IMG/VR virus record: IMGVR_UViG_3300049180_000045
Span: 1 to 51,112 of that record
DNA: 51,112 bases
Reading direction: 5' to 3' (one strand)
Source: a virus
Taxonomy: Duplodnaviria; Caudoviricetes
A program made the translations under genes and the position numbers. The notes beneath the pieces were generated by a model. That model had not been told where the DNA came from, ran no database searches, and saw nothing but the letters and a program-made list of their open reading frames with translations. Shown piece by piece: positions 14,928-26,730 of this stretch; positions within the stretch are counted from its first letter, which is position 1, and every line of letters begins with the position of its first letter.

Positions 14928-15336
14928 CGCACTAATCGAGAAAGTTCGCTTCATTGCGCAGCCCACGGGTCGAACGTGTGGTCAAGCCTGCGTTGCTATG
15001 GTGACCGGACAAACCGTCGAGGACGTGTGTCACGGGATCGGTAATTACGGATCGACTCGATGGTTCGAGATATGCCTCGCGTTGCGCGCGGCCGGTATCG
15101 AAACGCACGTCGAGAACTTCCAGCCGATTGATTCCGTTGTCGGGTTCGTCTCACTCGCGATCGTTTCGATCCGATCGGAAGACGAACGTCGAGGCCACTT
15201 CGCGGTGTGGGTCGGGGACGCTTATCTGTGCCCTACTGCGGGACGACTAGAACCCGCGTTCGCGTGGGAACTCTGGTCAGCACACGGTTTTATCCCGCGC
15301 GACATCTTGCCGATCGAGGTGAAGTCGTGCTCTTGA
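14920..15336 (+). CDS. Papain-like cysteine peptidase (C39-like)
   Basis: Q.....CGQACVAM and GHFAV motifs. Confidence 0.75.
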   Translation: MSNALIEKVRFIAQPTGRTCGQACVAMVTGQTVEDVCHGIGNYGSTRWFEICLALRAAGIETHVENFQPIDSVVGFVSLAIVSIRSEDERRGHFAVWVGDAYLCPTAGRLEPAFAWELWSAHGFIPRDILPIEVKSCS

Positions 15337-15578
15337 AATCATTGTTCGCGCGATCCGAGGCACCGCCCGAGATCGTCGAGCCGGCCGCGCCCGCGATACC
15401 TGGTCCCGGTCGTGTCTGGATCGAGCGGCCCGACGCGGACCGGAGAAGTCGCCGACCTCGCCTCTGTGCGTTGATCGTCGAGATCACCGAGACGCGGGTT
15501 CGGTGGTCGAGCGATTCGGGGGTCGACGGCGACGATCCGCTCGACGTGTTCCTCGAAGAGTTCGAGCCGTTCGCCTAG
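15327..15578 (+). CDS. Hypothetical protein
   Basis: GAGGTG RBS. PGRVWIER...FLEEFEP. Confidence 0.55.
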   Translation: MLLKSLFARSEAPPEIVEPAAPAIPGPGRVWIERPDADRRSRRPRLCALIVEITETRVRWSSDSGVDGDDPLDVFLEEFEPFA

Positions 15579-15613
15579 ACCTTTAACAGTTCAGGTGACA
15601 ACCTCGCGGGTCT

Positions 15614-17224
15614 GTGAAGGTCCGCGATACAGACCCACGAGAAGCGCGCGAGGCGATCGAGGCGGAACTATGCCGTCGGTCATTCGTGCGCTTTGCGCGT
15701 CGTGCATGGCGCGAGATCGAGCCGAACCCGATCGTCTGGAACTGGCATATCGACGCGATCTGTCTTCACCTTCAAGCTGTTGCAGAAGGCAAGATCCGAA
15801 ACCTTCTAATTAACATCGGCCCCGGGTACGCGAAGTCGATTCTCGTCTCGGTTCTCTGGCCTGCGTGGCGATGGGCTCGACAGCCCTGGTGGCGCGTGCT
15901 GGGAGCTTCGCACGCGGAAAAACTTAGCATCCGCGACGCGACCAAAGCTCGAACCCTCATTCAAAGCGCGTGGTATCAGAAACACTTTACCATCGATCCG
16001 CGAGACCCATCGTGTCAGGAGCGCTGGCAACTTCAGGTTGATCAGAACGTTAAGACGTATTACGCGAACACCGCGCTCGGATTCCGTCAAGCTCTAAGCG
16101 TGACGGGAGGTGGAACAGGCTACCGAGGCGATACGCACATTTACGATGACCTTCTCGACGCAAGCGACGCGCGTTCGTCTAGCGCGAAGTTGACCGCTCG
16201 AAGGTGGCTGACGGAAACGATGACCTCTCGTTTCAACAAGCAAGCCACGGGCGAGAAGGTCGCGATCATGCAACGGCTCGCGGATGATGATCCGAGCGAC
16301 CTAATGCTCAGGTCTCGCGAGTACGTGCATTTGCGCATACCGAGTGAATACGAGACTCCTGATAAATGCCCGGTCAAGGAATGCGTCACCTGTCACCGAG
16401 ACGGCGGTCGAACCCCGGTCATTGATCCCGAGACCGGAGAGCGCTGGAAGGATCCACGAACCAAGGAGGGAGAACCTGCGTTCCCTGCCATGTTCGGAAA
16501 AGAAGTGCTTGAACGCGACAAGGATCCCCACTCTGGTATGGGTGCGATCGCTTACGCGGGCCAGCACCAGCAGCGACCCGTCCCCGAAATGGGAGGTCTG
16601 GTCAAACGGGAATGGTTGGGCAAGCGCTGGTTCTACCCGGGAAGCTCGAACGAGTCGGCCGGCCTGGAAGTCATCGGGCTAGAGCGTCGGCCCTACAACC
16701 CCAGGACGAGCAAGCCGAACCGCCGCTTCATCGTCACGGATGCCGCGTTTAAGAACCTGGAAGATAACGATAAGGTCGCGATCGGAGTGTTCGACCTGGT
16801 CGGCCCGGATCTCTACTTGATTGACTTCAAGTGGGATCACATGGGCCTGACCGATACCATTCAGGCGATTATCGATCTGCGCGCGAAGTGGAACGCGACC
16901 GCGTTCAAGGTCGGGAATACGCTGGTCGAGGATAAGGCGAACGGCTCGGCTGTCATCGAGGTTCTACGGAAGAAGATCCCGGGCATTCTGGAGATCGAGC
17001 CCCTCGGGTCGAAAGAGGCGCGCGTCGCGTCTGCGGCTGATTTCATGCACTCCGGGAACGTCTGGCTTCCCGAAGCGCATCACCTCATTTCCGACGCAAT
17101 CGAGGAAGCGACAAGTTTCCCGCTCGGCCGTCGAGACGACTGGATCGACATGGTCGCGTACGGTGTGCTTATCGCGTTCCTTGGTTCGGATCTCTCGACC
17201 TTGGAAGGTCTTGCTAAGTGGTGA
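15614..17224 (+). CDS. terL: Terminase large subunit
   Basis: NLLINIGPGYAKS (Walker A), IYDD (Walker B), IMQRL, QQRP, and nuclease motifs TDAA / EDKANG / DDWID. Confidence 0.95.
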   Translation: MKVRDTDPREAREAIEAELCRRSFVRFARRAWREIEPNPIVWNWHIDAICLHLQAVAEGKIRNLLINIGPGYAKSILVSVLWPAWRWARQPWWRVLGASHAEKLSIRDATKARTLIQSAWYQKHFTIDPRDPSCQERWQLQVDQNVKTYYANTALGFRQALSVTGGGTGYRGDTHIYDDLLDASDARSSSAKLTARRWLTETMTSRFNKQATGEKVAIMQRLADDDPSDLMLRSREYVHLRIPSEYETPDKCPVKECVTCHRDGGRTPVIDPETGERWKDPRTKEGEPAFPAMFGKEVLERDKDPHSGMGAIAYAGQHQQRPVPEMGGLVKREWLGKRWFYPGSSNESAGLEVIGLERRPYNPRTSKPNRRFIVTDAAFKNLEDNDKVAIGVFDLVGPDLYLIDFKWDHMGLTDTIQAIIDLRAKWNATAFKVGNTLVEDKANGSAVIEVLRKKIPGILEIEPLGSKEARVASAADFMHSGNVWLPEAHHLISDAIEEATSFPLGRRDDWIDMVAYGVLIAFLGSDLSTLEGLAKW

Positions 17225-17501
17225 GTAGATCGGGACACATTTCCCGAAGCAAACGCTCGGCACCGTATGACGAGTGATGGAAGAACACGGCCGACGAACC
17301 GAAAGCGTAGATCGACCGCCCACCTTCCGCGTTGACCGGATCGAGCCAGTAAACATGACGCTCGACCTCGTGTTCTTCGAGCCCAAGTCCGCGAGCGAGT
17401 GCGTTCAATTCATCCTCTGACCAGGTCGACGCGACGGGCTTCGTGTCCACCTTCACACCGAGCCAGTCAGCGATCGACGTTCCGAGAAGTTCAGCGGGCA
17501 T
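17214..17501 (-). CDS. Antisense-oriented accessory gene (moron) between terL and portal
   Basis: Own conserved promoter (17535-17563) and AAGGA RBS. Confidence 0.7.
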   Translation of the reverse strand: MPAELLGTSIADWLGVKVDTKPVASTWSEDELNALARGLGLEEHEVERHVYWLDPVNAEGGRSIYAFGSSAVFFHHSSYGAERLLREMCPDLLTT

Positions 17502-17534: not shown

Positions 17535-17563
17535 AACCTAACCGCGTTCCGGTCGAGTGTCAA
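17535..17563 (-). promoter_or_regulatory. Conserved phage promoter (TTGACA-17-TAGGTT)
   Basis: TTGACActcgaccggaacgcggtTAGGTT. Confidence 0.75.
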
Positions 17564-17616
17564 GCAACCGTTTTCGGGTCTCGCGCACGCACCCGCGAGG
17601 GTGTAGGATTCTCGAC

Positions 17617-19476
17617 GTGCGTCCCGAAAATCACTTGACAGTTTCGACGGGTTCGTTTCGCCGCGACGGTTGGAAGAGTCTCTTGACCGGGATCGGCGAC
17701 ATGTACCGCGATAAGCGGATGTCAGCCGTTCAAATCGTTTACCGACTCACCCGCGAGGAACTTCGCGCGTTGTGGCTCGCTAACGACATGGGCTCAAACA
17801 TCGTCGAGAAGTTCGCGGCCGAGCAGGTTCGGAAGTGGCTCGACGTGAAGGTCGAGGGTGACAAGGAAGCCGGCGAAGCGTTCGACGCAAAGCTCGAAGA
17901 ACTCGGCGCGCAGCGCAAGTTCCAGCAAGCGCTAGAGTTCGAGCGCGCGTACGGGGGTTCCGCGATCCTGGTCGGTGTGAATGACCGCTCGGACCTCGCG
18001 GGTCTGGTCGAGCCTCTTCACGAAGATCGAATTCAGTCGGTCGATTACCTGAACGTGTTCGAGGCGCGCGATCTGCCCGCTCTTGAGTATTATGATAACC
18101 CCCTCGAAGCCAAGTACGGCGAGGTGAAGATTTTCGGATTGACCCCGCGCCTTCTCGGTTTGAGCGGCACAGGGTTGATTGCCGTTCACGAGTCCCGCCT
18201 TCTCGTGTTCGACGGTTCGCCTATCTCCCTGGAAGATAGAATCGCTAATCGCGGGTGGGGTGATTCCGTTCTGAACCGCTGTCACGGGGCGATTCGCGAT
18301 CTCGGTCTTTCGTGGGAGTCGGCCGCAGCACTCTTGCAAGACTTCGCGCAGGCGGTGTTCAAGATCAAGGGTCTGGCCGAAGCTGTCGGAAACGACCGCG
18401 ACGAACTCGTGATCAAGCGTCTGCAACTCATGGACATTTCCCGTTCGGCCCTGCGCGGGATTGCGTTGGATGCCGACGGCGAAGATTTCGAGCGGAAGCC
18501 GACCCCTATTTCGGGGCTCGCCGAGATCCTCGATCGCCTGTGTAACCGCCTTGCCGCAGCCGCGCGAATGCCTGTAACCCTTCTGATGGGTCAGTCGCCG
18601 GCCGGCCTGAATGCGACAGGCGACTCGGATATTCGGTGGTTCTATGACCTGATCGAGTCTCTACAGAAGAACCGCGTTCGTCCCCAGGTCGAGAAGTTGG
18701 TTCGTATGCTCGCGCTCGCGAAGAACGGACCGACGAACGGTGTAGAGCCCGAGAACTGGTCGATCGAGTTCCGGCCGCTTTGGCAACTCGACGCGGTTCA
18801 GGAATCCACGATCCGGTTAAATATCGCACAGGCCGACGAGAAGAATATCGCTAACGGAGTGTACACCCCCGAGGAAGCTTCGACTCATTACTCGGGAGAC
18901 AAGTTCGCGCTCGACGTTCAGCTTGACCGTAAGGCGCGCGAGCGTTTCTCGGCCGATCCTGTCGACGAGACCGAGACCCCGCGCCTCTTCAAGCCCGACC
19001 CGAACCAGGTCGACCCCGAGAACCCGTCTCCCGAGCCCGTAGACGCGACGAAGCCAGGGGTTGACCCCCTCGCCCCGAGTGCTGACGGGAAGGCGCAAGA
19101 CATCGCCCTGAACGGCGCACAGGTGACCGCCGCGCTCGAAATCGTGTCGGCCGTTGTGAACGGCGCACTTCCTCGCGACGCGGCAATCGGAATGCTGATC
19201 GAATTCTTCAACCGGACCCCAGAGGGTGCCGAACGTATTCTCGGATCGGTCGGGAAGGGTTTCGAGCCGAAGAAGCCGGATCCGCAACCCCCGCCCGATG
19301 CTACGCCGCTTCGACTCGTCAAGCAGGTTCCTGGTAACAAACAAGATGACCTGTCCTCGGACATGGTCGTTTCGATGTTCAAGTCGGGAGAGATTCAGAA
19401 GAAGACGGCGACGAACCTTCTTCTTCATTTCGTTAAGATTGACACGAACACGGCCGAGCAACTTCTCGCGGCATAG
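17617..19476 (+). CDS. Portal protein (DUF1073-type) with C-terminal extension
   Basis: RRDGW..LTGIG...DK N-terminus, R.YGG, HESRL, GWGDS, LMGQSPAGLNATGDSD, F.PLW. GTG start 7 nt after TAGGAT. Confidence 0.92.
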   Translation: MRPENHLTVSTGSFRRDGWKSLLTGIGDMYRDKRMSAVQIVYRLTREELRALWLANDMGSNIVEKFAAEQVRKWLDVKVEGDKEAGEAFDAKLEELGAQRKFQQALEFERAYGGSAILVGVNDRSDLAGLVEPLHEDRIQSVDYLNVFEARDLPALEYYDNPLEAKYGEVKIFGLTPRLLGLSGTGLIAVHESRLLVFDGSPISLEDRIANRGWGDSVLNRCHGAIRDLGLSWESAAALLQDFAQAVFKIKGLAEAVGNDRDELVIKRLQLMDISRSALRGIALDADGEDFERKPTPISGLAEILDRLCNRLAAAARMPVTLLMGQSPAGLNATGDSDIRWFYDLIESLQKNRVRPQVEKLVRMLALAKNGPTNGVEPENWSIEFRPLWQLDAVQESTIRLNIAQADEKNIANGVYTPEEASTHYSGDKFALDVQLDRKARERFSADPVDETETPRLFKPDPNQVDPENPSPEPVDATKPGVDPLAPSADGKAQDIALNGAQVTAALEIVSAVVNGALPRDAAIGMLIEFFNRTPEGAERILGSVGKGFEPKKPDPQPPPDATPLRLVKQVPGNKQDDLSSDMVVSMFKSGEIQKKTATNLLLHFVKIDTNTAEQLLAA

Positions 19477-19485
19477 GTCGAAAAC

Positions 19486-20700
19486 GTGAATCGTCAAGCG
19501 TTCGTCGGGCTGTTGCGTCGACGCGGGGTTCGGTCGATCCCGCGCCTAAAGCGTATGCAACAGCCGGACATGATCCGGCTTCGTTACTTTGAGAAGATTC
19601 GTTCGACGGTTCTCGTCGATATGTGGAATCTCGTCGAGCGCACGCTTCGCCCTGTGTTCGATCAGCGCGGCGACGGGTCGACACGTCAGGACGCAAGCAA
19701 AGACGAAGAAGCGAAGATCAAAGCCGCGCTTGAAGAGATTGCGGATAAGTGGGCCGAGAAGTGGTCGCGCGAGAAATTCGAGAAGGTGATTCAACCTTTC
19801 GCGCAAGATATCCAGCGGTTCAGCGCGGCACAACTAAACAAGGTTCTGTACGACATCGCGGGAGTTGACGTGGTCGGGGCCGAGCCCTGGTTAACGTCTC
19901 ACATCGCCGCATTCACGCGCGATAACGTTGCGCTGATTCGTTCTATTCCCTCGACATTCTTCGGCGAGGTTGAAGGGATTGTCACGAGCGACATCGCGGA
20001 CGGTGTGCGGTGGGAGGAAATGTCGACGTACCTTCACGCTCGATTCAACGTCAGTGAGTCGAAAGCCACGCTGATCGCGCGTGACCAGACCGGGAAGTTT
20101 TACGGAAAGCTTAACGAGGTTCGTCAAAAAGAACTCGGGGTCGAGGGTTACGTGTGGCGCACGATGCGAGACAATCGCGTTCGTGACGATCACGAACACC
20201 GAGACGGTCAGAAATTCGCATGGGACAAAGCGCCCCCAGGTGGTCACCCCGGCGAACCGATTCAATGCCGCTGTTACGCGGATCCTGATCTCGAACCGTT
20301 GCTTCGCGAGGCGATGTCGGACGATCCTCCGACGCAACCCCCCACGAGCACCCAACCGGAAGCGACAACTTCTCGCGGCATTCCACGCAAAGGATGGAAC
20401 CGCGAGCGTGTGTACATGGTTCCGATTTCCGAACTCGATGATATTCCCGCCAAGGAATGGGAGCCGGGTCGAGCGAAAGCAGTTGAAAAGCTGTTTCAGC
20501 AAAATGTGAAATTCTGGACTCCTTTGAAAGTCACTAGCGGTTATAACGGTTTGCGCGAGCTAGATGATGGAAATCACCGTTTATCGGTAGCGCGTCGACT
20601 CGGATTGAACATCTCTCTGCCTGTGAGATTTCTCGACGAAGACGCATCCGAGATCCGCAAGCGTCCCGCTCGTCCGAAACACTTCATGGACGAGAAGTAA
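19486..20700 (+). CDS. Minor head protein (MuF / SPP1 gp7-like) with C-terminal ParB-like domain
   Basis: IARDQTGK, W.T..D.RVR..H, HPGEPIQCRC. C-terminal LDDGNHRL...LG...LPV. Confidence 0.9.
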   Translation: MNRQAFVGLLRRRGVRSIPRLKRMQQPDMIRLRYFEKIRSTVLVDMWNLVERTLRPVFDQRGDGSTRQDASKDEEAKIKAALEEIADKWAEKWSREKFEKVIQPFAQDIQRFSAAQLNKVLYDIAGVDVVGAEPWLTSHIAAFTRDNVALIRSIPSTFFGEVEGIVTSDIADGVRWEEMSTYLHARFNVSESKATLIARDQTGKFYGKLNEVRQKELGVEGYVWRTMRDNRVRDDHEHRDGQKFAWDKAPPGGHPGEPIQCRCYADPDLEPLLREAMSDDPPTQPPTSTQPEATTSRGIPRKGWNRERVYMVPISELDDIPAKEWEPGRAKAVEKLFQQNVKFWTPLKVTSGYNGLRELDDGNHRLSVARRLGLNISLPVRFLDEDASEIRKRPARPKHFMDEK

Positions 20701-20757
20701 TTTAACAATTTCAACGACTTGCAAGTGGAACCCTCTCGTCTGTATTCTAGCGAGCAA

Positions 20758-22164
20758 ATGAGGGTTCGCCGATTCGATAGCGGTTCAACGGACCGTGCTC
20801 GTGCACAGAAGACACCCGAGGGGTTCCTTCGCGCCCCGGCCCGTCTGACACGCGTCGGGGTGTTCCCTTACCGGACCGACAAAGTCATTCGCCGCGAGCT
20901 TCGCCTTCCCGAAGAGGTTTTTCGTCCCGACTCCCTCGCGACGTTTGAGTTGATGCCGTTGACGAACGACCACCCGAAGAACCCGCTCGACGTGACGAAC
21001 GCGGGCGCGCACCAGGTCGGATCGGTGGGAGGCATTCACAGGGACAAGGAAGATCCCGACTACATGGCGGGCACCGTCCTGATCACGGAACGTCGCGCCG
21101 TTCAAGACGTGGAGTCGGGCAAGGTCGAGATCAGCAACGGGTACGCGTGCGACCTTGAAATCAAGTCCGGGATTTGGGTCGACTCTCAGGGTCGGGGGCA
21201 TCCTTACGACGCGATTCAGCGAAATATTCGCGCGAACCATATCGCGATCGTCGAGCGCGGTCGAGCCGGCCCGGGTGCGCGACTTCGTCTCGACGCGGCC
21301 GACGAAAGCGAGATCGGCGAACAGATTCGGCAAGACACGCAACTCTTGACTTACAAGGTCGGCGATCGCGTAAGGCGAACCGGAATCTATGTCGGCCCAA
21401 AAGCTTACGCGGGAGTGATCGTCGAGGTTCGCGAGACTCTTCCGGGTTACTTTGGAACGGTTTACTCGATCCTGTTCGACGGTTCGAGCGTCCCCTCGGA
21501 TTCTGAAAAGGGCGGTTTGTGGTGGTTCACAGGTGCCGAGATCGAACTCGATGATTCACACAAACAAGACGGCGCACCCGTCGATCAGAAGGGAAAAACG
21601 ATGAAGCTGCGGATGGATGGAAACGAGTTCGAGGTCGACGAGAAGCTCGCGGCTGCGATCGCGAAGGAGCGCGGCGATTCGGCCGAAATGGTGAAGACGG
21701 CGCAGGCAGCCGTGACCGAGCAACGCGCCCGCGCCGACGCGGCCGAGAACAAGGTCACGACGCTGACCAAGGAACTCGGCGAGGCGCGCGACCCGAAGAA
21801 GTTCGAGAAGGCGGTCGCCGACCGCGTTCAGCTTCATGCCGACGCGCGCGAGATTCTCGGGGCCGATACGAAGTTCGACGGACTCGACGAGACCGAGGTT
21901 CGCAAGCGTGCGATCCTGAAGCTCGACGGTTCCGCGAAGCTCGACGGCGAGACCCCCGAGTACGTCAAGGCGCGCTTCGATTCCGACCTGCGTCACTTCC
22001 GCGCGAAGAACCCCGCGAGCGAGCAGGCTCGTCAGAAGATCGACGAGCAGAAGCGCGCCGACGCGGCCGGCAGCGGTGGCGAGAAGAAGACCGACAAGGT
22101 CGACCCCCGCGCCGAGTTCGAGAAGAACATGTACGGGGCGCGCGACTTCGCGACCAAGCTGTAA
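20758..22164 (+). CDS. Prohead protease (DUF2213-type) fused to scaffold, with inserted SH3-like domain
   Basis: TPEGFL, R.GVF.Y, R.PEEVF, PLTNDHP, EISNGY, QRNIRANHIAIV.RGRAG. Coiled-coil C-terminal half with an in-frame ATG at 21601. Confidence 0.9.
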   Translation: MRVRRFDSGSTDRARAQKTPEGFLRAPARLTRVGVFPYRTDKVIRRELRLPEEVFRPDSLATFELMPLTNDHPKNPLDVTNAGAHQVGSVGGIHRDKEDPDYMAGTVLITERRAVQDVESGKVEISNGYACDLEIKSGIWVDSQGRGHPYDAIQRNIRANHIAIVERGRAGPGARLRLDAADESEIGEQIRQDTQLLTYKVGDRVRRTGIYVGPKAYAGVIVEVRETLPGYFGTVYSILFDGSSVPSDSEKGGLWWFTGAEIELDDSHKQDGAPVDQKGKTMKLRMDGNEFEVDEKLAAAIAKERGDSAEMVKTAQAAVTEQRARADAAENKVTTLTKELGEARDPKKFEKAVADRVQLHADAREILGADTKFDGLDETEVRKRAILKLDGSAKLDGETPEYVKARFDSDLRHFRAKNPASEQARQKIDEQKRADAAGSGGEKKTDKVDPRAEFEKNMYGARDFATKL

Positions 22165-22200
22165 GAGACACGCAACACGAACCGAGAAGGATCCCAAACA

Positions 22201-22719
22201 ATGCAACTCAACTACACGCTGAACCACGATCGGGCCTACCTCGGTACGTGGGCCGCGAACTCTCCGGTCGAGAAGGCGATCACGGCGAAGAACTCGAACG
22301 GCGCCGAGATTGCGTTCGGTCGCGGTGTGACGAACGCGGCTGCGCCGTCGACGCTGAACCACTTCGATTACACCCCGACCAAGCTCCCGACGGTGAACAC
22401 CGACAGGTTCGAGGGTGTCGCGGTTCACTCGATGACCTTCGAGGCCGCGCACCCGATCAGCGGGACGCGTAACGGACCGCAGGATGGTGAGGTCTACTCG
22501 CTCGCGCGCATGGGAATCGTGAACGTGTGGGTCGAGGATGCCGTCGATCCCACCTCGCCCGTGTACTGGCGCGTCGCCTCGAATGGCGCGGGCACCGCAC
22601 CTGGTCAGTTCCGCGCCACGGCCGACGGTACGAACACCGTCGCGATCACGAACGGCGCGCGGTTCCGTGGTCGCACGAGCGGTGCCGGCATCGTCGCCCT
22701 GGAAATCAACCTTCCCTAG
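22201..22719 (+). CDS. Head decoration / cement protein
   Basis: Position between scaffold and capsid. IAFGRGV, GVAVH, G.V.V, VYWR pattern. Confidence 0.8.
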   Translation: MQLNYTLNHDRAYLGTWAANSPVEKAITAKNSNGAEIAFGRGVTNAAAPSTLNHFDYTPTKLPTVNTDRFEGVAVHSMTFEAAHPISGTRNGPQDGEVYSLARMGIVNVWVEDAVDPTSPVYWRVASNGAGTAPGQFRATADGTNTVAITNGARFRGRTSGAGIVALEINLP

Positions 22720-22755
22720 CGCCCGCTAGGTTCACCAAGCAAAGGAAACGAGCAA

Positions 22756-23799
22756 ATGCCTGACATCCGAATCTTTCGGGCCGACGGGACGCAGTACCTC
22801 GCGAATCTCCCGGTCGACCCGACCCCGTTCCGTATGGACGCGGAGAACCTGAACCCGATCTTCGAGTCGTCTCTGATGCACCGCACGGACGCCGCGCCGA
22901 CGATGTTCCTCGCGCGCGCGCTCGAAGAGATCGACCCCATGATGTACGCGCGTCAGTACGCTCGCCTCGAAGCCGGCGAGCTTGTTCAGCCCCGAAGCAT
23001 GAATCCGGGCGCGAACAAGCACACCTACCGCCAGACCGACGGGAAGGGCGCGGCGGTCGTGACGACCGATTACAACGTCGAACACCCGATCGTCGAGGTC
23101 TCGAAGGAAGAGTTCTCGCAGGGTGTCGTGGGTATCCTCTCGGGCTACCGCTACAACCTTCAGGAGTTGCGCGCTGCGCTCTACGCGGGAGAGTCGCTCG
23201 ACACGGATCGCGCCCTGGTCGCCCGTCGCGTCATCGCCGAGACCACGAACCGGATCGGTCTGCTCGGGTACCCGGAGTTCGGGATCACGGGTCTGTTCAA
23301 CCAAGCGTACGCGCAGGCTTACACTCTTCCGGCCGACGGCAATCAGAACGGCGGATCCAGTTCGACGCGCTTCATTCACAAGACCACGCGCCAGATCGAG
23401 AGGGACATTCAGGGGATCCTGAACATGGTCCCCGAGACCACGGCCGAGATCGAGAAGGCGACGCGCGTCCTGATGCCGTATGCGACGCTGCGGTTCCTGG
23501 AACAGACGCGGATCGCCGACGATGTCGAGACCAAGATCCTCGACGTGATCAAGGGTGCCTTCCCGGGTGTGGAGTTCCGAGGCGCGCTGTTCCTCGAAAG
23601 CGCGGGCGCGGGCGGTTCCGGTCGGCTCGTCGCTTACAACCCCTCGCGCGAGATCGTCGAGTGGCTCGTTCCGATCGCGTTCGAGCAGTTCGCCCCCTTC
23701 CAGCCGACCTCGACCACATGGCAGATCATCATGCACGCGCGGATCGGTGGCATCGTGAACCGTCGGCCTCTGTGTATGATCTACGCGGATCACGTCTGA
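22756..23799 (+). CDS. Major capsid protein (DUF2184-type)
   Basis: Position, 347 aa, strongly biased codon use. Y.Y..QEL, G.P.FGITGLFN, R.GG....RP motifs. Confidence 0.9.
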   Translation: MPDIRIFRADGTQYLANLPVDPTPFRMDAENLNPIFESSLMHRTDAAPTMFLARALEEIDPMMYARQYARLEAGELVQPRSMNPGANKHTYRQTDGKGAAVVTTDYNVEHPIVEVSKEEFSQGVVGILSGYRYNLQELRAALYAGESLDTDRALVARRVIAETTNRIGLLGYPEFGITGLFNQAYAQAYTLPADGNQNGGSSSTRFIHKTTRQIERDIQGILNMVPETTAEIEKATRVLMPYATLRFLEQTRIADDVETKILDVIKGAFPGVEFRGALFLESAGAGGSGRLVAYNPSREIVEWLVPIAFEQFAPFQPTSTTWQIIMHARIGGIVNRRPLCMIYADHV

Positions 23800-24524: not shown

Positions 24525-25300
24525 TGGCCACGTTCGGCAAGGGGATCAAGGCGGTAATCCGCGCGCGAGGGATTACCTCGAAGATGTCGATCAAGAAAAT
24601 CGACAAGGGTCTGAAGAAGATTCAAAACGTCGTGCGCTCGATCCAGGTCGATAAGTCGTACGTCAAGGCGGGATTGCTCGGTAAAGCCGCGAAGAAGCGT
24701 CCCGTTCCTCGCTTCGAGTTGAAGACGACCGAGGAAGAGTGGGGTTTTCTCAAAGCGCAGCTTGCTGTTCATCCTGCGTTGTTGGCTGTAATCGCGTCAG
24801 AGGCGAAGAAGCGCGCCGACGCATACAATCAAAAACCGATGACGAACGTTGAACTCGGCATCATTCACGAGTTCGGAACGGGGCGAATCCCCGCGCGTCC
24901 GTTCATCGGTCCCGCGTTCGCGAAGAACCGAGCGGGCTATATCGACACCCTGAAGAAGTTGGTCAAGCTGTCGGTGTATAACGGAAAGATGTCTTACGAT
25001 CGTGCGCTCGGGATCATGGGTCTGCGCATGGCTGCGGACATGAAGAAGTACGTCACGGCCGGCCCCCCAATTCCTCCCCCGAACGCGCCGAAGTATTTTC
25101 AGGAAAAGGTCGAAAAAGGTTACTGGAAGCAAGAGAAGCGAAACCGCTCGCTTCAAAAGAAAAACAAACCAATCCCCGAGGGTCCACCGCTACCGCCTCG
25201 GACGCTCGTCGATACGGGGCGAATGGTCAACTCGATCACTCACGCTGTCGTGTTGCGTAGCACGGGCGACGAACGTTCCGAGCGCAAGGGCAAGAAATGA
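24524..25300 (+). CDS. Neck / tail completion protein
   Basis: HEFGT..IPARPF, PPNAP, LVDTGRM..SIT. Confidence 0.85.
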   Translation: MATFGKGIKAVIRARGITSKMSIKKIDKGLKKIQNVVRSIQVDKSYVKAGLLGKAAKKRPVPRFELKTTEEEWGFLKAQLAVHPALLAVIASEAKKRADAYNQKPMTNVELGIIHEFGTGRIPARPFIGPAFAKNRAGYIDTLKKLVKLSVYNGKMSYDRALGIMGLRMAADMKKYVTAGPPIPPPNAPKYFQEKVEKGYWKQEKRNRSLQKKNKPIPEGPPLPPRTLVDTGRMVNSITHAVVLRSTGDERSERKGKK

Positions 25301-26730
25301 ACCTCGATCTTTCCAATGTCATCGGCGCGTTCGCGAACCCCTCGCCCTTCACGGTCGAACGATTCAGCGCGGCCGGCTATGATAACTCGGGGCGAGCGCT
25401 GTCGAGCGAGAAGTCAACCTTCACAATCAGCGCGGTCAAGAAACCGGCGAACGGGAAAGACGTTGTTCTTTCCGTTGACGGTCAGCGAACGATCGAAACA
25501 TTCGTCATCTTGACCACGACCGAACTGCGCACGAGTGATAATCGTGACGGCACTCCGGCCGACAGGATTTTGATCGACGGTCGACCGTTTGAAATTACGT
25601 CGGGGAAAGTGTACGGGAACCTCGGGAACTATTGCCGGTACATCGCCGTTCTTCTTCCCGGGGATGCGCCACCCGTGGGAGGTCCATCAGCGGGAGCGAC
25701 GTTCTTCGCACGAGCCGTGACCGTTGAGCCTGTCCCTGAACTTGTCGCTACGAACGTTCAAGATGCGCTCGCGGAACTCCAGGCGGTTGTTTCGACGAAG
25801 GTCACACAAGACGCGCTCGACGAACTTGCAAGTGAACTCGACGACCTCGCGGGTGTCGTGGCGCTGAAGGCGAGTGCGGCAGATCTTAGCGATCTTCTTG
25901 TTAGAGTTGACGCGATCGAATCGAGCCTCGGGGACAAGGCGAGTGTGTCTGACCTCGCGTTCCACGCGAACTCGACTAACACGCACGGAGTAGCGGGAAA
26001 CGTTGTCGGAACACAAGGTGCGCAAACGCTCGCGGACAAGACGCATACGAGCACGGTTGTTGACGACGCGTCGGCAATCGCTCACGTCTTCGACACAACG
26101 AACGCGCTCAGCAATGTCGGCGCAAAGTTGGTCTCATGGCGAAACAGCGGAGTTGAGAAATGGTTCGTTGATCGCAATGGATCTATGAACATTCGAGGAG
26201 TTCTGTCGGGCGCGAACGCGATCGTCATACCGTCAGGATCTCGGGTGTTACTTGACGGCGCGTCCGGTGGGCGAGCGTTGTCCGTTACGAATGGCTTCGT
26301 GAATGTAAGCGCGTATTTCGAAGCGGAGTTGATCCGTGTAGGACGCGGTATCGGCGAGGCCAGCGCAATCACTATTCAAGACAACAACGGAGTTAATACA
26401 ACAGAGATCAGAAACAGCGATGGACTAATCTCGCGATTCGTGGCTGACACCACACTGTCACCAGGAAACGCAACGGCAAACGTCACGAGTCACGGGCTCG
26501 TTACGAAGACCTCGATTGGAAGGTCTGCCGTAGCGGCAGGTGCAACCTCAGTGACCATCACAACGGCAACCGCGAGGTCCTCTCAACTTGTGATGATCAC
26601 GCCGCGTCAGGTTGATCCGAACGTGAAAACGTTCGGGGCTTTGGTGTATGATGGCTATTTCGTGTTGACACTTGATGCAGCTCCGAGTGCGCCGTGGTCG
26701 TTTAACTGGGAACTGAAGGAAACTAAATAA
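25297..26730 (+). CDS. Head-closure protein fused to coiled-coil and fibre-like domains
   Basis: N-terminal ~120 aa head-closure-like (ADRILIDGRPFEI), then ATNVQDALAEL, a heptad region and a beta-rich C-terminus. Confidence 0.75.
   Translation: MNLDLSNVIGAFANPSPFTVERFSAAGYDNSGRALSSEKSTFTISAVKKPANGKDVVLSVDGQRTIETFVILTTTELRTSDNRDGTPADRILIDGRPFEITSGKVYGNLGNYCRYIAVLLPGDAPPVGGPSAGATFFARAVTVEPVPELVATNVQDALAELQAVVSTKVTQDALDELASELDDLAGVVALKASAADLSDLLVRVDAIESSLGDKASVSDLAFHANSTNTHGVAGNVVGTQGAQTLADKTHTSTVVDDASAIAHVFDTTNALSNVGAKLVSWRNSGVEKWFVDRNGSMNIRGVLSGANAIVIPSGSRVLLDGASGGRALSVTNGFVNVSAYFEAELIRVGRGIGEASAITIQDNNGVNTTEIRNSDGLISRFVADTTLSPGNATANVTSHGLVTKTSIGRSAVAAGATSVTITTATARSSQLVMITPRQVDPNVKTFGALVYDGYFVLTLDAAPSAPWSFNWELKETK

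Follow-up and report, generated by a model that had tools for sequence, protein, structure and literature searches.

The prohead proteases of phages T4 (gp21), phiKZ (gp175) and SPN3US (gp245) recognise x-x-Glu motifs. In T4 and phiKZ, one short motif, with an acidic residue at P1 before the cut, is common to the scaffold or core proteins, the capsid leader, the portal and packaged proteins; T4 also has capsid-targeted internal proteins, IPI-III. Here, a comparable arrangement is described in the head gene module of a tailed phage (Duplodnaviria; Caudoviricetes), from positions 1 to 51,112 of the IMG/VR record IMGVR_UViG_3300049180_000045 (hereafter "the window", the whole stretch of 51,112 nucleotides). 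Its protease-scaffold polyprotein and the leader of its major capsid protein are rich in a four-residue motif, [R/K]-[hydrophobic or small]-Asp followed by Ala, Gly or Ser. This is most probably the cleavage motif of a prohead protease, namely the N-terminal DUF2213 domain of the polyprotein itself. The kind of mechanism, a shared short motif, is known from T4 gp21 and phiKZ; the Asp instead of Glu at P1, the basic P3 and the fusion of protease and scaffold in one polypeptide are differences.

T1-like coliphages encode a protein of the same Pfam family, DUF2213 (T1 gp50, TLS gp33), in a gene order common to them and the window: portal, MuF, protease-scaffold, cement and capsid. In the cryo-electron microscopy structure of T1, the capsid protein gp47 is modelled from residue 27 of 319 (PMC11945409), and in the T1 record A27 stands directly after K24-Q25-D26. 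Edman sequencing of the mature TLS capsid protein gave the N-terminus ASDMGIW (PMC11447400), which in record NC_009540 begins at residue 33 of the annotated protein, right behind K-N-D. The TLS paper reports 45 residues removed (PMC11447400), versus an Edman peptide at residue 33 of the annotated gene (15072-16061 in NC_009540), a discrepancy that probably reflects a different start codon. Both termini are already published, and the accessible text of the T1 and TLS papers does not state the motif.

PB1-like Pseudomonas phages (PB1 gp22, Pa193 gp24 "scaffolding protein", E217) possess a DUF2213-type protein that adjoins the decoration and capsid genes. The capsid models of E217 and Pa193 begin at residue 66 (PMC10329688, PMC11042391), and the accessible parts of these two papers name no protease and leave open the cleavage of the capsid, portal and "scaffolding" proteins. 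No publication stating an Asp motif for the DUF2213 family was found in a literature that was covered in part.

The window is that of a myovirus-type phage, with genes for primase/helicase, DNA polymerase, methyltransferase, sheath, tape measure and baseplate. It shares the motif excess of T1 and TLS (see below), and differs from them by an identity of only ~30-35% over the protease domain, the presence of a sheath, a longer capsid leader with three sites, and a domain inserted in the protease-scaffold. Named phages are only distantly related, the best match of the protease being Xanthomonas phage Kintu (25% identity), and all 1069 matching records lie below 60%. The features that carry the argument are the following (an arrow marks a predicted cut; numbering is that of the open reading frame (ORF) form with a TTG start, 481 amino acids (aa), the database form P0001 starting at ATG 20758 with 468 aa):

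20719..22164, plus strand: protease-scaffold polyprotein, 481 aa from the TTG start, 12 strict [RK]xD[AGS] sites, PF09979 (DUF2213)
20806..21285, plus strand: protease domain, aa 30-189, PF09979, with candidate catalytic residues H85 (20971-20973), S139 (21133-21135) and H174 (21238-21240)
21286..21297, plus strand: RLD↓A, aa 190-193, predicted cut freeing the protease domain, where a disordered stretch of the model begins
21295..21570, plus strand: passenger segment, aa 193-284 (92 aa), a small β-rich domain bounded by RLD192↓A (also RQD206↓T) and KQD284↓G
21571..22161, plus strand: helical scaffold, aa 285-481, with eight of the nine strict sites of aa 281-481, KQD284↓G being its N-terminal boundary
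22756..23799, plus strand: major capsid protein, 347 aa, Pfam PF09950 (139 bits), with relatives in the PDB from Pam3 (8hdt) and T1 (9kmg)
22756..22890, plus strand: capsid leader, aa 1-45, with three sites, RAD10↓G, RMD28↓A and RTD45↓A, and a predicted mature N-terminus at A46

The polyprotein belongs to DUF2213, scoring 129.2 bits over aa 30-189 against a Pfam cut-off of 22, and is matched by PHROG 530, "head maturation protease" (E 2.8e-80). It sits between the MuF gene and the cement and capsid genes, and its C-terminal part is helical (helices 295-459 in the AlphaFold2 (AF2) model).

The position of the cut can be predicted at the capsid leader. In a PDB sequence search, the window peptide RTDAAPTM (43-50) aligns with KQDAAATM (24-31) of the 319-residue T1 capsid chain 9kmg, hence the junctions RTD↓AAPTM and KQD↓AAATM. 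All 11 of 11 close capsid homologues retain D45, and at least 90% retain D28. With IMG/VR relatives included, 43 of the 44 rows show Asp in the D45 column, and Ala fills P1' in 37; the one row without it stems from an ORF whose called start coincides with the site. Upstream of this Asp, length and content are variable, whereas the sequence downstream is conserved, which is the pattern of a propeptide junction. The cut is placed after Asp on the basis of the T1 model start, the TLS Edman terminus and the conserved D45 column. Shigella phage Sf11 was also considered as a test. Its capsid protein is covered by mass spectrometry from residue 40, residues 39 and 40 being Ala and Lys, and its gp41 has no strict motif; this phage was judged uninformative, because its protease seems to be of another type and the peptides covering the capsid are tryptic.

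An earlier note on this DNA, made from the letters alone, had proposed that the motif, to be counted in a wider form [RKH]xD[AGS], is concentrated in head proteins. The 65 ORFs of the window, called by a simple home-made codon-usage score, comprise five head proteins and 60 others. The strict motif [RK]xD[AGS] occurs 18 times in the 2043 residues of the former and 16 times in the 12980 residues of the latter (1.2 per 1000 residues; binomial p 6e-8), and the wider form 20 and 23 times, respectively (p 2e-7). Every copy that the note listed is present, RPDS 69 having been overlooked, while "KAQD" and "KQDD" of the portal, which it counted as well, do not match the pattern. Expected counts were obtained from shuffles of each protein's own residues, which keep composition (copies are given with the number of their first residue):

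Protease-scaffold: RFDS 18, RPDS 69, RLDA 190, RQDT 204, KQDG 282, RMDG 298, RGDS 318, RADA 338, HADA 373, KFDG 385, KLDG 401 and 407, RFDS 419, RADA 446; observed 12, expected 1.61 (0/5000 shuffles reach 12)
Scaffold part, aa 281-481: observed 9, expected 1.05 (0/10000 shuffles)
Capsid, aa 1-50: RADG 8, RMDA 26, RTDA 43; observed 3, expected 0.06 (0/10000 shuffles)
Capsid, aa 51-347: observed 0, expected 0.26 (not significant, P = 1.0)
Portal: RRDG 35; observed 1, expected 1.41 (not significant, P = 0.77)
MuF: RGDG 61, RQDA 67; observed 2, expected 0.93 (not significant, P = 0.24)
Cement: observed 0, expected 0.15 (not significant, P = 1.0)

By these shuffles the proposed concentration holds for the protease-scaffold and the capsid leader, but not for portal, MuF and cement, which lie at background. 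The enrichment is thus carried by two proteins and not by head proteins generally. Neither of the controls, Asp replaced by Glu ([RK]xE[AGS]) and the motif reversed, is enriched in the window.

The motif excess extends across the family. In the 120 top-ranking of 752 homologues matching the protease-scaffold, the median is 8 motifs versus 1.2 expected, with a shuffle P <= 0.01 in 99. When the protease domain alone was used in an exhaustive search, it returned 10,566 representatives (50%-identity library, E <= 0.001), the best 150 of which hold 1190 motifs versus 207 expected, with P <= 0.01 in 134. A profile scan of IMG/VR, where an earlier single-protein scan gave one weak locus only, yielded 80 loci, whose 1124 ORF products were sorted into classes by BLAST. 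Their observed-to-expected ratios are 4.2 for the protease, 1.85 for the capsid, 1.42 for MuF, 1.26 for the portal, 0.86 for the terminase and 0.94 for 900 other ORFs. Despite their low identity to the window protein, T1 and TLS keep the excess: T1 gp50 harbors 11 motifs versus 1.14 expected (19 motifs in the 13061 residues of the other T1 proteins), and TLS gp33 harbors 12 versus 1.05. In the scaffold regions, the context of Asp is enriched at P3 in R (x3.3), H (x2.6) and K (x2.0), at P2 in F/L, and at P1' in G (x3.5); around Glu in the same regions, nothing comparable is found. As to the length of these proteins, a search for longer fused forms found one, P0132, a DUF2213 homologue of 879 aa. 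Its first ~470-480 residues are Ala/Val-rich repeats devoid of the motif, and the remaining 400 hold 9 copies; the N-terminal extra may be genuine or may result from an ORF called too long.

Within the polyprotein, the Asp at the boundary between protease and linker (D192) is invariant in 120/120 homologues and 150/150 representatives. Further down, the 23 best-conserved columns of the scaffold include the Asp columns 287, 327, 374, 396 and 408 (P0001 numbering), and D327 is kept in 119/120. Cuts at the 12 strict sites would split the protease body once, at D71, and yield the 92-residue piece 193-284 and nine scaffold peptides of 6-47 residues.

An AF2 model built from a 58-homologue alignment (mean predicted local distance difference test score, pLDDT, 85; ~97 in the protease domain) displays a compact domain (12-178), disorder at 181-195 and 270-278, a β-rich domain (~200-265) and the C-terminal helices. 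H72, S126 and H161 in P0001 numbering, which correspond to H85, S139 and H174 of the ORF, are invariant in 58/58 aligned homologues. R49 and R169 (P0001 numbering) are invariant as well and are tentative candidates for a basic S1 pocket. The best Foldseek matches in the PDB are herpesvirus assemblins and T4 gp21 (probability 0.85-0.99, E 3.5e-3 to 1e-2, template modelling (TM) score ~0.3), whereas no sequence match to the T4 gp21 and phiKZ gp175 families was found. The modelled fold would fit a Ser-His-His prohead protease and is taken as a lead, not as a proof; the domain is probably a serine protease of the assemblin/T4 gp21 type that uses His85, Ser139 and His174 as catalytic residues. We infer that this DUF2213 domain is the cutting enzyme. 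A motif shared between head proteins, as in maturation of the T4 gp21/phiKZ kind, is found here, but a signature of cleavage after Glu is not, the Glu context being flat.

Two further head proteins carry candidate sites near their N-terminus, and both possess a C-terminal extension:

17557-19476 (from GTG 17557): portal, PF06381
17659..17670, plus strand: portal RRD↓G, aa 35-38 from GTG 17557 (aa 15-18 if GTG 17617), predicted removal of a short leader
18922..19473, plus strand: portal C-terminal extension, aa 456-639 (184 residues), not bracketed by the motif
19486-20700: MuF, PF04233 at aa 162-264
19684..19695, plus strand: MuF RQD↓A, aa 67-70, with RGD↓G (aa 61-64, 19666-19677) just upstream
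20362..20697, plus strand: MuF C-terminal ParB_N-like domain, aa ~293-404, not bracketed by the motif

GTG 17617, which an AGGA-type ribosome site precedes, is a more probable start of the portal than GTG 17557, and the choice of start codon leaves the RRD↓G site unchanged. The D37 column holds Asp in 49/50 portals, with G (26) or S (14) at P1', behind an unconserved leader of 5-45 aa. In MuF, the D69 column is Asp in 38/38 relatives, with R at P3 in 26 and A at P1' in 25. From these alignments, D37 and D69 are likely rather than firm cut sites, because the Asp residues could belong to the conserved blocks downstream.

The earlier proposal of an Asp-specific recognition motif of a DUF2213-type protease gains support from the family-wide excess, the capsid Asp in 43/44 rows, the TLS Edman terminus and the T1 model start. 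In the proposed pathway, once the procapsid has assembled, the protease would cut after Asp and detach itself at RLD192↓A. Some nine cuts would dice the helical scaffold into pieces 6-47 residues long, able to exit the shell, and removal of the 45-residue capsid leader would expose the mature N-terminus A46. A short portal leader would be trimmed at RRD37↓G, and MuF would be cut once, near residue 69. As a side effect of this architecture, the 92-residue segment D192-D284, with its small β-rich domain, would be freed as a separate polypeptide. We infer both the cutting at every site and the fate of the fragments.

How far the motif extends in the family is illustrated by PB1, in which the protease-scaffold, capsid and MuF proteins have no strict [RK]xD[AGS]; a basic P3 would therefore be clade-specific. 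A-M-D-S occurs instead in the PB1 portal (74), protease-scaffold (398) and capsid (62), with only one other x-M-D-[AGS] in the 7362 residues of the annotated region. The capsid model start at residue 66 lies one residue past the serine that follows A62-M63-D64 in PB1 (record NC_011810). With A-M-D↓S in the PB1 head proteins and this model start, the P1 Asp seems shared. It may be general in the DUF2213 family, with clade-specific upstream positions (R/K-x-D versus A-M-D).

The predicted release of the inserted domain raises the question of its role. In typical homologues, a linker of ~27 residues occupies the passenger position. The stretch from the boundary Asp to the next conserved site reaches at least 90 residues in 8 of the 120 homologues and at least 70 in 16 of the 150 representatives. 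These inserts are of varied types: Xre-type helix-turn-helix domains in P0074, P0091, P0107 and P0166 (Pfam), two DUF6900 copies in P0180, and several others with no family match. The β-rich insert of the window recurs at 50% identity in P0002 and P0003, and its only Pfam match is a weak one, to DUF1918 (E 0.088). Its β-strands have a pLDDT of 70-88 between disordered flanks in the alignment-based model, and the inserted domain alone, modelled from a single sequence, has a pLDDT of 43. As the insertion hotspot lies between two conserved cut sites, the inserts would be cut free.

That the passengers are cargo, freed by the Asp cuts, remaining in the head and entering the next host with the DNA, is a tentative reading that we hold to be somewhat doubtful. 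The hotspot, the variety of the inserts, including the helix-turn-helix and DUF6900 domains, and the relatedness of the window insert to those of two relatives are in its favor. So is the commoner occurrence of a further strict motif in the last 30 residues of inserts (7/16) than of short linkers (10/134; Fisher p 4e-4, uncorrected for relatedness). However, 9/16 inserts have no strict downstream motif, no insert of at least 60 residues is found in 55 IMG/VR relatives (the longest have 58 and 49), and an insert could act instead in assembly or protease control.

The C-terminal extensions of the portal and MuF, which the earlier note also took for cargo bracketed by the motif, do not fit this reading. 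Neither the 184-residue portal extension nor the 119-residue MuF extension of the window contains the strict motif, and among the relatives 7 copies are found versus 7.4 expected in 22 portals, and 1 versus 2.2 in 6 MuF proteins. A domain lying between protease sites is thus seen for the protease-scaffold insert and is absent for the portal and MuF extensions, and of the claim that the motif brackets passenger domains only the insertion hotspot stands. The portal extension has no Pfam or Atlas family. The C-terminal domain of MuF has no Pfam match at E up to 1, and matches ParB_N in an Atlas structure search (TM 0.53-0.58), which is a lead only. Such portal extensions are common and variable, portal relatives spanning 358 to 755 aa, and the extensions of other MuF relatives differ and are 218-319 aa long.

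Head proteins acting as carriers of extra domains recall the T4 internal proteins IPI-III, although the window passenger lies inside the protease-scaffold and not behind a targeting peptide. They also recall the MuF toxin family, whose C-terminal domain is variable (PMC5576092), as it is in the MuF of the window, where this domain lacks a flanking motif. Ejection of the freed domains with the DNA is speculation. A broader scheme makes DUF2213 polyproteins a general delivery vehicle, the linker accepting varied proteins that are freed in the head and enter the next host as regulators or counter-defence factors, with a family-wide P1 Asp and clade-specific P3/P2 codes; we deem it unlikely.

Several observations weigh against the motif being a cleavage signal throughout. 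Cleavage in the window phage is a prediction, and the portal and MuF are not enriched by count. Because the homologues are of common ancestry, their motif counts do not represent separate events. A basic P3 is not universal, the capsid site having R/K in 18 and H/N in 13 of 43 rows, and the PB1 protein lacks any strict motif. Similarity of fold to known proteases is low (E 3.5e-3, TM ~0.3), and some conserved Asp "sites" of the protease domain itself (D7 and D151 in P0001 numbering) are frequently followed by a P1' residue that is not small, so that they may not be cut. Moreover, 5/12 sites lie inside predicted helices (AF2), K-L-D-G at helix ends resembles a turn signal, and the conserved scaffold Asp columns are of the sort expected of structural residues.

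The last three points would suit another explanation, in which the motif serves scaffold structure, for instance as helix caps, turns or acidic patches that bind the capsid, and true cleavage takes place only at the capsid D↓A junction. In line with it, a fragment (286-326) of the homologous Pa193 gp24 remains bound in the mature capsid according to the accessible part of that study (PMC11042391), so that the scaffold need not be wholly destroyed. However, the same four-residue consensus is present at the experimentally mapped TLS capsid site. It is likewise found in disordered linkers, among them the invariant boundary of protease and linker, and in unconserved portal leaders, and the scaffolds of T1 and TLS, less than 35% identical to that of the window, have the excess as well. 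A purely structural role is for these reasons quite improbable, and cleavage after Asp by the DUF2213 protease is preferred. Lastly, a by-product of composition or ORF calling, suggested by a scaffold rich in K, R, D, A and G and by an "other ORF" set from a home-made caller, has a negligible probability, since composition-keeping shuffles never reach the observed count and the Glu and reversed-motif controls are flat, which rules out chance or composition as the cause, and since the result repeats in the annotated genomes of T1 and TLS.

The remaining genes of the head module are as follows:

15614-17224: large terminase
22201-22719: cement protein, PF22758

Between the terminase and the portal, the opposite strand holds a 95-aa ORF (17214-17501, minus strand), whose ATG is preceded by a GAAGGA ribosome site and whose coding score is positive. 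This ORF may represent a "moron" gene that has inserted into the head operon. Downstream of the capsid gene, a 477-aa protein (25297-26730) matches the 126-aa head protein family PHROG 939 over its first ~125 residues, and its remaining 350 residues have no match in Pfam or PHROGs.

The DUF2213 family is very large, with the 10,566 representatives counted above, and little studied, and it includes T1-like and PB1-like phages of laboratory and phage therapy use. If true, the R/K-x-D↓A/G/S rule, which is directly testable in T1 or TLS, would make the mature termini of capsid, portal and MuF proteins predictable from sequence, would account for scaffold removal, and would flag proteins possibly packed into phage heads.

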